Positions 38,366 to 50,043 are shown, counted from the stretch's first letter. The stretch is 64,000 bases of DNA from Bacteroidales bacterium (GCA_019415705.1 DXYS01000006.1:30618-94617); one strand, 5' to 3'. A program made the numbers and translations. Notes: generated by a model from the letters alone, not told the origin.

Positions 38366-39388
38366 TTATTTGTGATAACGGCCGGCGGCACGGCTGACGC
38401 TTTCGGCTACCTTGGCGCGGAACTCGGGCGGAGCGATGACTTCGGCGTGGCCGCCGTAGCCGAGAATAAGCCGCTCAAGCTCGTTGTTGATGACAACTTT
38501 CAGCGACAGCTGTATGCTGCCGTCACTGAATCGCTGCTCTACTTTCTGAGATTTATGAAAAGGCTTTGACTCGACATACGGAGCTTGGTCACGGTCAATC
38601 TTAATAACTATGCGCCGTGCTTTGTCCCTGATTTGTTTCGTCACCCCTATCGTATCGTCAAAAAAGTGCTCCGGGTCAAAATCTACACATTTTCTGAACG
38701 GATGCGTTTTATCAGGCACAACCGAGTGTATGCGGTCAAGAGCGAAGATATTGACCTGCGGCGTGCGGTTTGTCACCTTTTCGCAAATCAGAAACCAGCG
38801 GTTGCGATACTCCTTTAATAAATAAGGATAGACCGTCAGCGCCTCGGGATGTCGGGCCTTAAACGACTGATACTCTATCACGATGGTTTGTTGCTTTCTT
38901 ACCGCGTCATATATTGCACCTATAAACTGCGCGCCGCGATAGCCCGCGACAGTCTCCATATCAATGGCCGGCACAGATGAGCCGGTCTGCCGCGAGATAT
39001 GCTCGTTGAGCTTGCTGATGATGTCGATTGACGACGACAGCTGCGGGAACATCTGCAACTGACGCAGGATATCGAGCGCCGAGTTGAGCGCCTCCAGCCC
39101 CTCGTCATTGAGCGGAAGATGCGTTATGCTGTAGTCCGGATCATCATATTCATAATACTTGTTGTCACGCACCACAATCGGCGCGTTATAGCCAAGTCTG
39201 TCACTGCGCATCAACGCCAGATCATTCTGAAACGTGCGACGGCTGACGGGATTACTGCGGCCTTCGTACTCGGCAAGCGCATCGGTGCACGCATCGATAA
39301 GGTCGTTGATTGTCCAGCGGCGATAATGATTCTGCAGGCAGCGGTCGATGGTCGAGATGCGTATCAGTGTGGCACGGTTGAGAGGCAT
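38366..39388 (-). CDS. WYL-domain transcriptional regulator (N-terminal HTH, central WYL, C-terminal WCX-like)
   Basis: 340 aa. It has an HTH-like N-terminus, and the WYL domain core reads LTVYPYLLKEYRNRWFLI. It is divergently transcribed from rtcB. Confidence 0.8.
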   Translation of the reverse strand: MPLNRATLIRISTIDRCLQNHYRRWTINDLIDACTDALAEYEGRSNPVSRRTFQNDLALMRSDRLGYNAPIVVRDNKYYEYDDPDYSITHLPLNDEGLEALNSALDILRQLQMFPQLSSSIDIISKLNEHISRQTGSSVPAIDMETVAGYRGAQFIGAIYDAVRKQQTIVIEYQSFKARHPEALTVYPYLLKEYRNRWFLICEKVTNRTPQVNIFALDRIHSVVPDKTHPFRKCVDFDPEHFFDDTIGVTKQIRDKARRIVIKIDRDQAPYVESKPFHKSQKVEQRFSDGSIQLSLKVVINNELERLILGYGGHAEVIAPPEFRAKVAESVSRAAGRYHK

Positions 39389-39482: not shown

Positions 39483-41273
39483 ATGATAATCAAAGGGAAA
39501 ACCACCACCGCTGAAATATTTACAGCGAATATCGAGGAGTCTGCGCTCGAATGGGCCAAAGAGCTTTGCGACCATCCGTGCATGCAGGGCGTCCCCGTCG
39601 TCCAGATGCCTGACGTGCACGCAGGACGTGGCTGCAATGTCGGCACGGCCTATCCGGTCAGACAGTTTGTCAATCCCGACCATGTCGGTGTCGACATAGG
39701 CTGCACGATTTCGATGCATAAACTTTCGGCGCCCGTCTGTCCTGACGACTATGCACTACTTGACCACCGTATTCGTGAGACTGTGCCAACCGGTAACAGA
39801 GTCTGCGACAAGAACTCATTAAACGAAAAGGAGTTCATGGCGTTTATAAATTCACGCTATCAGAGTGCACGCTCGGTCGCACCCGATCTCATCAACGAAG
39901 AGCGCATCGACGGGCGCTTTATCAGTGATTTCTGCCGGCGTGTCAAAATTCAGGAGGGTGTATTCTATAAAAGTCTCGGCACACTCGGCGGAGGGAACCA
40001 TTTCATCGAATACGGAGTAGCCGAAAAGTCAGACGAGGCTTGGCTGACAATACACTGCGGCTCTCGGAACCTCGGAGTCAAAGTCGCCTCTTACTGGCAC
40101 AATATCGCCGCTAATCCGCGCCATGGCGCATATGCCGGATATCTGTGTGACGACGCCTTACGCGGTTATATCTCGGATATGGTCATCGCTCAGGCCTACG
40201 CCATGTATAACCATTATGTCATCCGCGACCGCATATTTGTCATCCTCAAGAAATTGTGCAACGCCAAATGCTCCGAGTCGATATTCACCACTCACAATTA
40301 CATCTCTTTCGACGGAGTGCAGCCCATGCTTCGCAAAGGTGCTGTCGATGCCTCCGAAGGACGAAAGTTAGTCATCCCATTCAATATGCGCGACGGCATC
40401 GCCATATGTGTCGGACGCGGCAACCGGGAGTGGCTCAACACCGCTCCCCACGGCGCAGGCCGAGTCATGAGCCGTGCGCAGGCACGCAAACAGATTGACA
40501 TGCAGGACTTCGAGCAGACGATGTCGGGCATTTTCTCTACATCAGTCTGTGAAGGCACGATTGACGAAGCGCCTATGGCTTATAAACCGACCGATGAAAT
40601 CCTCGAAATGATAAGACCGACCGTCGATGTCGTGGCTATGGTCAGACCGAGAATAAACATTAAAGACAATGGAAGATTACGGCCAGATAACAGCCGGTCG
40701 CGGCCCCGTGGAATGTGCGCGTGCCGTGACACTCGTCGCCCGCAAATTACTCAAAGAAATCCCGGACTCAAACTCGTTGAAAGCGAGCCTCACAATCAGG
40801 CTGCCGACTGCTATATGTCGCTGACATTCGCTGCCGACGAGGCCATTGACAACAGCTTTAAAGATAACTGGCAGGGCACGGTGCTCTGGCGTTCGACCAA
40901 TAATCCGTATCGCCCGGACTACAAACGCAGCAACTGGTTTGTCGGAGTAAACTTCATCGATGAAGTCGAGCTGCCCCAGATCAATGAGGCCGATATAGTC
41001 TATGAGACCTGTCGCTCAGGCGGCAATGGCGGACAGAATGTCAATAAGGTCGAGAGTTCGGTCAGAGCCATCCACACACCGACCGGTATCACGGTCAGAT
41101 GCTCTGACGAACGCTCGCAAGCTCAGAACAAGGCCCGTGCACGCGAGCGTCTGATGCTTAAACTTCGCGCCATCAATGATTCAGCCATAGCCGATGCCCG
41201 CGTCAGACAGTGGAGCAACCATGACTCGCTCGTAAGAGGCGCGCCGGTAAAAAAATTCAGCGGACCGCTATAA
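39483..41273 (+). CDS. rtcB: RtcB-family RNA 3'-phosphate ligase (about aa 1-395) that, as sequenced, has no stop and continues in frame into the GGQ domain of PrfH
   Basis: RtcB motifs MPDVHAGRG, GGGNHFIEYG, HCGSRNLG and TAPHGAGR are present. RtcB homology ends at ...VRPRINIKD (40667). The same frame then runs to the stop at 41271-41273. Confidence 0.85.
   Translation: MIIKGKTTTAEIFTANIEESALEWAKELCDHPCMQGVPVVQMPDVHAGRGCNVGTAYPVRQFVNPDHVGVDIGCTISMHKLSAPVCPDDYALLDHRIRETVPTGNRVCDKNSLNEKEFMAFINSRYQSARSVAPDLINEERIDGRFISDFCRRVKIQEGVFYKSLGTLGGGNHFIEYGVAEKSDEAWLTIHCGSRNLGVKVASYWHNIAANPRHGAYAGYLCDDALRGYISDMVIAQAYAMYNHYVIRDRIFVILKKLCNAKCSESIFTTHNYISFDGVQPMLRKGAVDASEGRKLVIPFNMRDGIAICVGRGNREWLNTAPHGAGRVMSRAQARKQIDMQDFEQTMSGIFSTSVCEGTIDEAPMAYKPTDEILEMIRPTVDVVAMVRPRINIKDNGRLRPDNSRSRPRGMCACRDTRRPQITQRNPGLKLVESEPHNQAADCYMSLTFAADEAIDNSFKDNWQGTVLWRSTNNPYRPDYKRSNWFVGVNFIDEVELPQINEADIVYETCRSGGNGGQNVNKVESSVRAIHTPTGITVRCSDERSQAQNKARARERLMLKLRAINDSAIADARVRQWSNHDSLVRGAPVKKFSGPL
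40669..41273 (+). pseudogene. prfH: Peptide chain release factor H-like gene split over two frames (frameshifted, mis-sequenced or recoded)
   Basis: ATG 40669 in the +1 frame gives MEDYGQITAGRGPVECARAVTLVARKLLKEIPD, and that frame stops at 40822-40824. From about 40764 the PrfH homology is in the rtcB frame: WQGTVLWRSTNNPYRPDYKRSNWFVGV and SGGNGGQNVNKVESSVRAIHTPTGITVRCSDERSQAQNKA. Confidence 0.75.
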
Positions 41274-41348: not shown

Positions 41349-43055
41349 ATGAGAGGATTTGAATTTCTTAAAGCAGAAAAGCCCGACTCGGCAGACAAAA
41401 CAAAGCAGAAAGACGCGGCCCGCAACGCCCGGCCGAAGAGTATTCTCGAATCTTTTGAATATATAGTCGAATTGGCCGAGAAATCAAATTTAGACAAGGA
41501 CTTCTTCGATAAGGCGGCCACGCACATCAGATATGCCGGGCGCAAACTTAAGCTCACTCCCATGCAGGTCGTATTGCTCTCGATGTTTGTCGACCGTAGC
41601 GAGGACAGCCGCATCATGATTTCGGAAATTGCCGCTTACACCGGTTGCCGCACGACCAAGCTGCTGCGTCTGTCAGATGACATCGACGTACTCGAGGCCA
41701 AGCATTATATCCGTGCGGCCCGCGGGCGCAAGTCACTGAGCTATCGTGTGCCTTCAGATGTACTGAAAGCCCTTCGCAAAGGGGAGCCATACGTCTACAC
41801 CGAGGAGCCCGTTGCCGACACAGAGACTTTCTTCGACAGATTTGACTGTCTGATGGACGAGATGGATGACGACGAATTGACACATGACATCCTGATGCAT
41901 CGCACAAACGAGATGCTCGAAGAAATTCGTCATACGGCATTTGCCACCGGTTTGCGACGCTACAACCTTGACTCTGAACATAAGCTGATTTTTATCTATA
42001 TGGCCCATCTGTTCGTCGAGAACGATGACAACAATATCGTATTCAGCGACATCGAAAATATCTATGACGATGACGAGATACCCGGCTGGCAAAAGCGCAG
42101 TCTGCGAAATCACGAGTCTGAACTATTTACAAAAGAGCTTATCGAAAATGTCAACGAAGACGGCATGGCGCGCTCTGATGCGTTCAAACTCACCAATAAA
42201 GCAAAGGACGAACTCCTCGGCGAGCTCAAACTCAATTCTCTCGGCAAGTCAGACCGCGGACTGATTAAGGCGTCGTCACTTGCCGCCAAAAAGCTGATTT
42301 ACAACTCTGCCGAGGAGAAAGAGATTGGCGAGCTTGCATCAATTCTTTCGGCCAAGCGTTTTGACGAAGTGCAGACCCGTTTGCGTGCAGCCGGCATGCG
42401 CCCCGGATTCTGCTGCATATTTTATGGAGCGCCCGGCACCGGCAAGACCGAAACTGTCTATCAGCTCGCACGTCAGACCGGCCGCGATATAATGCGTGTT
42501 GACGTCGATAAAATCAAAAGCTGCTGGGTCGGCGAAAGCGAGAAAAACATCAAGGCGCTTTTTGACCGCTACCGCAGCATCTGCAAAAACTCGACGCTTG
42601 CGCCGATTCTGCTCTTCAACGAGGCCGATGCCGTGCTCGGTGTCAGAATGGAAGGCGCATCAAGCGCTGTCGACAAAATGGAGAACTCTATCCAGAACAT
42701 CATCCTGCAGGAGATGGAGTCACTCGAGGGCATAATGATTGCGACGACTAACCTCACGACAAATCTCGACAAAGCCTTCGAACGCCGTTTCATTTACAAA
42801 ATCCGTTTTGACAAGCCGACCGTCGGGCCGCGTGCCAAAATCTGGCAGAGCATGCTCAACGGGCTGTCAGACAAAGATGCCGAGACGCTTGCCTCGCAGT
42901 TTGACCTCTCGGGCGGCGAGATTGAGAACATCGCACGCAAACACTCTGTCAACGCCATTCTTTCAGGAAATGAGGATATAAACCTCGACGAGATTATCGC
43001 ATCGTGCCGCCATGAACGCCTTGACAATTCACCTCGCGCCAAAATCGGATTCTGA
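41349..43055 (+). CDS. AAA+ ATPase (classical CDC48/FtsH-type AAA module) with N-terminal winged-helix-like region
   Basis: 568 aa. It has Walker A GAPGTGKT, Walker B ILLFNEADA and the SRH region ATTNLTTNLDKAFERRF. The N-terminal part ISEIAAYTGCRTTKLLRLSDDIDVLEAKHYI looks wHTH-like. Confidence 0.85.
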   Translation: MRGFEFLKAEKPDSADKTKQKDAARNARPKSILESFEYIVELAEKSNLDKDFFDKAATHIRYAGRKLKLTPMQVVLLSMFVDRSEDSRIMISEIAAYTGCRTTKLLRLSDDIDVLEAKHYIRAARGRKSLSYRVPSDVLKALRKGEPYVYTEEPVADTETFFDRFDCLMDEMDDDELTHDILMHRTNEMLEEIRHTAFATGLRRYNLDSEHKLIFIYMAHLFVENDDNNIVFSDIENIYDDDEIPGWQKRSLRNHESELFTKELIENVNEDGMARSDAFKLTNKAKDELLGELKLNSLGKSDRGLIKASSLAAKKLIYNSAEEKEIGELASILSAKRFDEVQTRLRAAGMRPGFCCIFYGAPGTGKTETVYQLARQTGRDIMRVDVDKIKSCWVGESEKNIKALFDRYRSICKNSTLAPILLFNEADAVLGVRMEGASSAVDKMENSIQNIILQEMESLEGIMIATTNLTTNLDKAFERRFIYKIRFDKPTVGPRAKIWQSMLNGLSDKDAETLASQFDLSGGEIENIARKHSVNAILSGNEDINLDEIIASCRHERLDNSPRAKIGF

Positions 43056-49599: not shown

Positions 49600-50043
49600 T
49601 TAATCATCATATTTGATAAACTTGCCGTTCAAGTCAAACTTGAGGTCAATACCGTTGGCCAACTCCACCTCAAAGCCGTTACGCTCTTTCTCGATGCCGA
49701 CCACATTTTGTCCCGAATGATTTTTCTTAACAAAATTTCTGATGCCTTCGAGCACAAATGCGCGCGGGACTGCGGTTTTTGCATTAGTCTCGACCTGATG
49801 CCAGTTGCCTTTGCTGTCAAACGAGATTTCTGAGCCGTCAGTGAGAATGACCTCATACTCGCTGATTCGCCCGAAATCCTTGTCAATCTTTATCAAAGAG
49901 ACTTTGGCTTTGAAATTATTGGAGATTGTCGTACGTGCAGCCTCAGGCAAAACCGATGCATCACGGCTATAATCATCACGTGCTATGGCGACAGTCGCGA
50001 GTCCGAAAACAAGCAAAACGCTCAGTAATATTTTCTTAATCAT
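49600..50043 (-). CDS. Secreted PepSY-like (DUF2874-type) small protein
   Basis: 147 aa with a signal peptide. YEVILTDGSEISFDSKGNW and FEVELANGIDLKFDLNGKF are present. It is paralogous to 43173-43688. Confidence 0.65.
   Translation of the reverse strand: MIKKILLSVLLVFGLATVAIARDDYSRDASVLPEAARTTISNNFKAKVSLIKIDKDFGRISEYEVILTDGSEISFDSKGNWHQVETNAKTAVPRAFVLEGIRNFVKKNHSGQNVVGIEKERNGFEVELANGIDLKFDLNGKFIKYDD

Follow-up and report, generated by a model that had tools for sequence, protein, structure and literature searches.

A probable strain-restricted prfH pseudogene and a possibly artefactual RtcB-PrfH fusion reading frame in an uncultured gut Bacteroidales species

Features of the locus

The window analyzed here is a stretch of 64,000 nt from the genome of a Bacteroidales bacterium (GCA_019415705.1, DXYS01000006.1:30618-94617), which contains an rtcB gene followed on the same strand by prfH sequence. 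Upstream of the pair, and divergent from it, lies a gene for a WYL/WCX-domain protein (38366..39388, - strand; Pfam), likely the regulator of the rtcB-prfH operon; the same neighbor is found in the related contigs L005-L008 and L011-L013. Downstream follows a gene for an AAA ATPase of 568 aa (41349..43055, + strand; Pfam), the synteny of which is conserved.

The rtcB and prfH sequences are covered by a single ORF of 596 aa (39483-41273, + strand), which starts with ATG 39483 and ends with the stop codon 41271-41273; if TTG 39441 is taken as the start, the ORF has 610 aa. Its translation confirms the first-pass annotation in that rtcB is open into prfH without any stop codon between. The product would be composed of RtcB, an Arg/Cys-rich linker of 32 aa that is read out of frame, and PrfH without its first 32 residues (i.e., residues ~33-201).

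The rtcB gene proper (39483..40676, + strand) comprises 398 codons and ends with ...NIKDNGR, after which the ancestral stop codon would be expected. The homology to RtcB had earlier been described as ending at ...NIKD (40667), but it runs on through N-G-R (40668-40676). The product is recognized as a full-length RtcB RNA ligase by Pfam model PF01139, with 200.9 bits (cut-off 27); residues 38-394 align with positions 14-425 of the 426-position profile. The equivalog models for PrfH-associated RtcB were missed, namely TIGR03073 (89.9 vs 271.8 bits) and NF007153 (112.7 vs 407 bits; NCBIfam). RtcB of the relatives measures 398-399 aa and ends with ...NIKDNG[R/E/K], directly followed by the stop; nearly all of the best 120 RtcB homologues among 5.8 billion proteins have 399 aa, and the same C-terminus was found in the five homologues whose sequences were read. 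The codon changes specific to the window in rtcB are four synonymous and no nonsynonymous ones. The catalytic body of RtcB is inferred to be intact and is probably active.

The prfH sequence is split between two frames. Its 5' segment (codons 1-32; 40669..40763, + strand) is found in frame +1 with respect to rtcB; there, ATG 40669 opens an ORF of 51 aa, MEDYGQITAGRGPVECARAVTLVARKLLKEIPDSNS..., which continues to TGA 40822-40824; both the start and the stop had been reported correctly by the first-pass annotation. The N-terminus encoded from this ATG reads MEDYGQITAGRGPVECARAVTLVARKLLKEIP... and shares 28 of its 32 residues with the closest relatives. The 3' segment (codons 33-201 and the stop codon; 40764..41273, + strand) lies in the rtcB frame, as had also been noted, and carries the GGQ codons at 41028-41036. 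In place of a single prfH ORF of ~200 aa with its own start overlapping rtcB, the window thus has the ORF of 51 aa.

The fused PrfH part (residues 429-594 of the ORF) scores 149.2 bits with TIGR03072 over profile positions 36-197, which is below the curated whole-protein cut-off of 166.65. A hypothetical repaired PrfH of 201 aa, with one C added, scores 176.3 bits over positions 3-197 and is the only version to pass. The repaired protein also aligns from residue 5-6 onwards with both solved PrfH structures, 9mor and 7sa4. Given this gain in score and the alignment to the solved structures, the similarity of the +1-frame segment to the PrfH N-terminus is not due to chance. The RF-1 domain (PF00472, 84.7 bits) is present in the fused part, including the motif SGGNGGQNVNK with its GGQ.

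Comparison with related loci

The locus was compared with ten distinct loci from outside the strain of the window for which the junction is assembled: L001 (95% aa identity), L002 (67% aa identity), L005-L008, L012/L013 (98.3-98.5% nt identity), and four JGI contigs. Every relative examined has an ATGA overlap, composed of the TGA of rtcB and the ATG of prfH, and a continuous prfH of 201 aa. Relative to them, the window shows two deletions, one of 7 nt at the overlap (40677/40678) and one of 1 nt in a CCCC run; they are 83 nt apart and total 8 nt. There are no other indels in the alignments to L012 (7.2 kb) and L013 (5.8 kb). This alignment of related junctions had been proposed as a check in the first-pass annotation; neither the offset nor the missing rtcB stop is conserved in the relatives, which speaks against recoding.

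The missing stop of rtcB has a cause separate from the 1-nt offset, one that had previously gone undetected: rtcB lacks its stop because the 7-nt deletion took the TGA of the ATGA overlap. The ancestral frame of prfH is -1 relative to rtcB; the loss of 7 nt puts the 5' part of prfH in the +1 frame, and once 1 nt more is lost, the 3' part is in frame with rtcB. From this arithmetic, the Arg/Cys-rich linker is what the first 32 codons of prfH yield in the wrong frame. The rtcB/prfH overlap of about 110 nt that was earlier predicted to result from one extra C is arithmetically correct but does not represent the normal architecture, since it stems from the 7-nt deletion.

At the rtcB/prfH boundary, a change from AAC to AAT made an imperfect tandem heptamer, ATGGAAG-ATGAAAG. 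A scan of JGI metagenomes for junctions with the AAT allele and any spacer yielded 0 matches; a looser scan yielded only four additional relatives, which are more distant and have the normal junction.

The single-nucleotide deletion and the state of prfH

The CCC run at 40761..40763 (+ strand) contains one C fewer than the CCCC of every relative, which frameshifts prfH and bears out the position originally assigned to the offset. The same CCC occurs in three assemblies of the strain, i.e., the window, L011/L014 (ERZ28661103) and L009 (a MEGAHIT contig, ERZ27315959), a recurrence that is not fully independent because same-strain assemblies may share samples or related samples. Since the run is identical in all three, a homopolymer sequencing or assembly error, as considered in the first-pass annotation, is unlikely for the 1-nt deletion, and CCC is probably a real mutation. 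We infer that PrfH is non-functional, its own ATG being predicted to yield only the truncated peptide of 51 aa.

The rRNA-recognition domain of E. coli PrfH is formed by residues 2-98 and 180-204 (PMC9304027). Residues 1-32, which are absent from the fused reading, are predicted from the sequence to belong to this domain; they contain the motif QITAGRGPVEC, which is identical across all Bacteroidales relatives compared, and the form QITAGRGPxEC is recognizable in the PrfH proteins of E. coli and Capnocytophaga. In the 3' segment of prfH, the substitutions I64F, H78N, G84D and H85Y are specific to the window. Two of them, G84D and H85Y, are situated in the conserved loop NPYRP-G-H-KRSNW (NPYRPGHKRSNW); where the window has Y85, all relatives and the two solved PrfH structures have the histidine of this loop. 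By a manual residue count in the structure alignment, D84 is placed opposite H85 of E. coli PrfH, a residue that touches C1054 of the 16S rRNA (PMC9304027).

In the lineage of the window, prfH has accumulated 7 nonsynonymous and 3 synonymous codon changes, as compared with 3 nonsynonymous and 15 synonymous changes in rtcB and the WYL and AAA genes pooled. The nonsynonymous excess has a Fisher p of 0.011, or of 0.066 if the three changes at the junction are left out; the constraint on prfH in this lineage thus looks relaxed, on counts that are small and borderline without the junction changes. Some of the divergence of prfH represents recombinational mosaicism and not decay.

The rtcB/prfH junction in assemblies of the same strain

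The junction of the window reads GGAAGAT/TACGGCCAG (40668..40685, + strand), and the GAAAGAA of all relatives is absent between 40677 and 40678. Besides the window, the 7-nt deletion is found in two assemblies, L011 and another contig at ENA for which the same product of 596 aa is predicted. Four nt from the deletion point, the window alone has the dinucleotide GG (40681..40682, + strand) instead of the AT seen in all relatives and in the other assemblies of the strain, and the conserved Ile5 of PrfH is thereby replaced by Gly. L014, compared over 21.8 kb, shows 3 mismatches to the window, namely these two substitutions and a SNP at 49687.

Two further contigs are 100% identical to the window, L003 (MEGAHIT) over 8.3 kb and L004 (Logan) over 4.7 kb, and both terminate exactly at the deletion point, with ...AATGGAAGAT and ...AATGGAAG, respectively. 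L009, which comes from the same sample as L003, opens with ATGAAAGAATACATCCAG, the undeleted start of prfH; compared over 8.4 kb, L009 and the window mismatch at 4 positions, none of them beyond the first 14 nt of L009. Three junction sequences accordingly occur in otherwise identical DNA: the undeleted AATGGAAGATGAAAGAATACATCCAG, the deleted GGAAGATTACATCCAG and that of the window, GGAAGATTACGGCCAG. Apart from the junction, the same-strain assemblies are free of indels, and the window shows no differences in 16.7 kb from L003 plus L009.

From these data, the odds are roughly even between a 7-nt deletion, and hence a fusion, that is physically present in the genome and one that was made when contigs were joined. 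Scaffolders may join contig ends through short imperfect overlaps, and a spurious join of this kind, in a genome that has the normal ATGA junction, an rtcB of 398 aa and only the CCC frameshift, is a credible account to which we assign somewhat less than an even chance. The end of L003 and the start of L009 share AT, and if they are joined there, the ancestral ATGA junction is restored. If instead the last 9 nt of L003 (ATGGAAGAT) are superimposed on the first 9 nt of L009 (ATGAAAGAA), 7 of 9 positions are identical and the exact junction of L011 results, a record that is titled 'scaffold'. Furthermore, 40681-40682 is the sole place within 7.8 kb where the window and L011 disagree. Against a joining artefact, the deletion is found in all three of the assemblies named above, and the SNP at 49687 in L014 implies at least two genotypes or samples with the deletion. 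Moreover, if the undeleted sequence alone existed, there would be no cause for three assemblers to break at this base, whereas the observed left end is where de Bruijn graphs would be expected to fail over a real, polymorphic 7-nt indel, which would by itself account for that end. An artefact is compatible with prfH being a pseudogene but abolishes the fusion ORF.

It was also considered, as an unlikely case, that the boundary, with its imperfect tandem heptamer, is truly unstable, either by a 7-nt indel that is polymorphic in the population or as a site that often breaks and is repaired imprecisely. Such instability would account for three assemblers halting at the same base and for the three junction sequences; the polymorphic indel would switch rtcB from standing alone to forming an RtcB-PrfH' fusion and back. 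A search near the junction for repeats or hairpins that might have caused the deletion or the contig break gave only short matches at chance level, and the start of prfH occurs only once within the window. As a cause of the contig ends, the insertion of a mobile element at the AT dinucleotide, or site-specific cleavage there, was set aside; it predicts contig ends that run into the element, and none were seen.

Interpretation of the fusion reading frame

The locus is probably best described as an ordinary rtcB-prfH operon in which prfH has recently become a pseudogene in one strain, with a fusion ORF that is incidental, possibly artefactual, and free of recoding. The operon would consist of the WYL regulator, rtcB, prfH and the AAA ATPase, the standard ribosome-repair set of Bacteroidales. 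Loss of one C from CCCC would have knocked out prfH in a single strain-level lineage, and the second gap, of 7 nt and seen in this assembly, would have removed the stop of rtcB together with the ATGA overlap. rtcB would then be read through the out-of-frame 5' end of prfH, which forms the linker, into the 3' part of prfH, and the fusion ORF would have arisen by accident from the two small deletions. Most likely, RtcB is active and PrfH is dead. Whether the fusion is an assembly artefact or not does not affect the pseudogene conclusion. Among the explanations offered in the first-pass annotation, a genuine frameshift yielding a prfH pseudogene has become the best supported, as CCC is reproducible; its companion, a functional fusion, has not fared as well (see below).

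That both indels are errors, and that the genome encodes two ordinary genes, an rtcB of 398 aa and a prfH of 201 aa, is quite unlikely. Loss of one base from a homopolymer is a classic type of error, and the junction is unstable between assemblies; however, the CCC run is identical in the MEGAHIT k141 contig, the second ENA scaffold and the window, and a run of four bases is short for a systematic error. The assemblies are also not prone to indels (no others in 7.2 kb vs the nearest strain; 16.7 kb clean within the strain), and the nonsynonymous excess in prfH is in keeping with a gene that has truly lost its function.

The opposite possibility is a newborn functional RtcB-PrfH(deltaN) enzyme, in which, once the 1-nt deletion had inactivated prfH, the 7-nt deletion was selected because it re-expresses the GGQ domain tethered to the ligase; this, too, has only a slim chance. 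The two deletions combined leave the frame uninterrupted, and two indels that jointly reopen a frame of 1.8 kb could represent compensation preserving expression of the GGQ domain, a counterpoint to the pseudogene; the chance that a random indel at the junction restores the frame is about 1 in 3. The sequence of the GGQ domain is preserved, and so is that of most of the recognition domain. RF1 and RF2 have an additional N-terminal domain at the position equivalent to that of the fused RtcB. PrfH and RtcB2 also work sequentially on the same damaged ribosome (PMC9304027). On the other hand, the linker is nothing but out-of-frame prfH sequence, the recognition domain loses its strand-helix with the invariant QITAGRGPxEC, the conserved His85 is replaced, and the junction is irreproducible between assemblies.

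The fusion is, moreover, confined to one strain. No RtcB-PrfH fusion was found among the best 150 of 1.84 billion representative proteins, where the PrfH part was unmatched and all long matches ended with the RtcB C-terminus, and none of the best 120 cluster representatives covered more than 70% of the fusion query. In these two sets, the two-domain architecture did not recur in independent lineages. The only other product of 596 aa found, P0130, is near-identical and occurs in just two ENA contigs of the same strain. No recorded product matched the 596-aa or the 610-aa ORF exactly, the 51-aa ORF of the window and the hypothetical repaired products were absent from the protein collection, and a look-up of the 152-aa PrfH product from an internal start returned only the already known contig.

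Programmed or usable -1 slippage of tRNA-Pro from CCG (40762-40764) to CCC (40761-40763), which would restore full-length PrfH from ATG 40669, is barely credible: it would give ...KEIPGLK..., identical to the ancestral protein, but all ten relatives have CCCC in the zero frame within one continuous frame, and the site is therefore a fresh mutation and not a conserved recoding signal. As first noted, there is no slippery X XXY YYZ heptamer (the site reads A-AUC-CCG-G), nor does the site hold a stop or a rare codon, and the stop of that frame lies 58 nt downstream; the downstream fold (40765-40860) is unremarkable (z = -1.44; 14 of 200 shuffles fold as well), and the PrfH papers that were searched by terms report no frameshifting in the expression of prfH.

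Relation to known systems

The order of the genes is that of rtcB2-prfH, the operon for ribosome rescue and repair in E. coli ATCC 25922 (PMC9304027, PMC9223846, PMC13166195), where a ligase of the RtcB family is immediately followed by a release-factor homologue of ~200 aa. PrfH of that strain and the PrfH described here have in common the GGQ motif and the lack of domain 1, and the repaired PrfH of the window was aligned with the E. coli protein (EcPrfH, 7sa4) over residues 6-199. In contrast to ATCC 25922, prfH is here broken by the loss of 1 nt and is joined to rtcB in this assembly; RtcB belongs to a divergent Bacteroidales clade below the cut-offs of TIGR03073 and NF007153, and the rtcB-prfH pair is flanked by a WYL regulator and an AAA ATPase. 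The relatives of the window share the overlap of stop and start codons that was remarked upon for prfH operons, where it indicates translational coupling (PMC1586002).

Pseudogenes of prfH that have arisen by deletions, frameshifts or nonsense mutations are common, and the copy of E. coli K-12 is among them (PMC1586002). As in such pseudogenes, the lesion described here is restricted to a lineage, the upstream rtcB-like gene is intact and close relatives are spared. It differs from theirs in affecting a single base and in being very recent, as strains of 98.3-98.5% identity are intact, and in that the deletion at the junction also creates a long fusion ORF. Among solved structures, the best match is CgPrfH from the Bacteroidota (PDB 9mor/9mq4; 136.6 bits, residues 5-199; PMC12829566), which shares the N-terminal motif QITAGRGP(L/V)EC with PrfH of the window. 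Members of the CgPrfH subfamily have 225-250 aa with a C-terminal tail (PMC12829566), whereas PrfH of the window is the short form of 201 aa.

A likeness to prfB (RF2) lies in the fact that a gene of the release-factor family changes frame part-way through its coding sequence. The +1 frameshift of prfB, conserved across bacteria, takes place at CUU UGA C, which includes the in-frame stop, and is stimulated by a Shine-Dalgarno-like sequence upstream; the shift required here would be -1, has no signals of this kind and is found in none of the relatives.

The locus adds one more case, from a single strain of a gut Bacteroidales species that is uncultured, to the decay of prfH described since 2006. 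It also illustrates that a striking fusion or recoding ORF can arise from two small strain-specific deletions, and that a deletion located exactly where independent assemblies break may be an artefact of joining. Such ORFs bridge unrelated families in protein clustering; the 201-aa PrfH and 399-aa RtcB proteins fell into one 90% cluster.

Contig boundaries and sequence comparison

The boundary between rtcB and prfH (window position 40677) coincides with the contig ends of three same-strain assemblies (L003:1, L004:1 and L009:1), all of which lie within 2 nt of a single base. The assemblies ending here are a MEGAHIT contig (L003) and a Logan contig (L004) on the left side and a further MEGAHIT contig (L009) on the right side, and the mutual overlap of left and right contigs is limited to AT. 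A polymorphic indel, a structural variant or a site of breakage may lie behind these shared ends.

Compared with the nearest strains, which carry an intact operon (L012 and L013), the window shows 82-115 mismatches per kb across prfH (40668-41273), versus 2-17 per kb in the flanks. Because of this jump, and because the same segment is closer to the relatives L001 and L005 than to L012 and L013, the comparison suggests an intraspecies recombination tract spanning prfH. At about codon 140 of rtcB (window position 39900), L012 and L013 (P0128) have the same 3-nt in-frame deletion as the window (NEERIDG, where L001 and L005 read NEVKRIDG); it is an older, harmless polymorphism without relation to the junction lesions.

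Protein family assignment

The RtcB encoded in the window (39483-40676) passed Pfam easily, but scored far under the NCBIfam models of PrfH-associated RtcB (TIGR03073, 89.9 versus 271.8; NF007153, 112.7 versus 407). From this combination, the protein belongs to a divergent, apparently unmodelled RtcB clade that is still paired with PrfH. In the 90% identity cluster of protein P0001, PrfH proteins of 201 aa and RtcB proteins of 398-399 aa are grouped together, drawn in by the 596-aa fusion product P0130, a case of a chimeric ORF acting as a contaminant of protein clustering.

Genomic neighborhood

According to Pfam, rtcB is flanked by a divergently oriented gene for a WYL/WCX-domain protein (38366-39388, minus strand), and a gene for a 568-aa AAA ATPase (41349-43055, plus strand) is located downstream of prfH. 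The synteny of these two genes around rtcB-prfH is kept in all close relatives; the relatives L006 and L008 carry an additional WYL gene and a metallophosphoesterase gene, both upstream.
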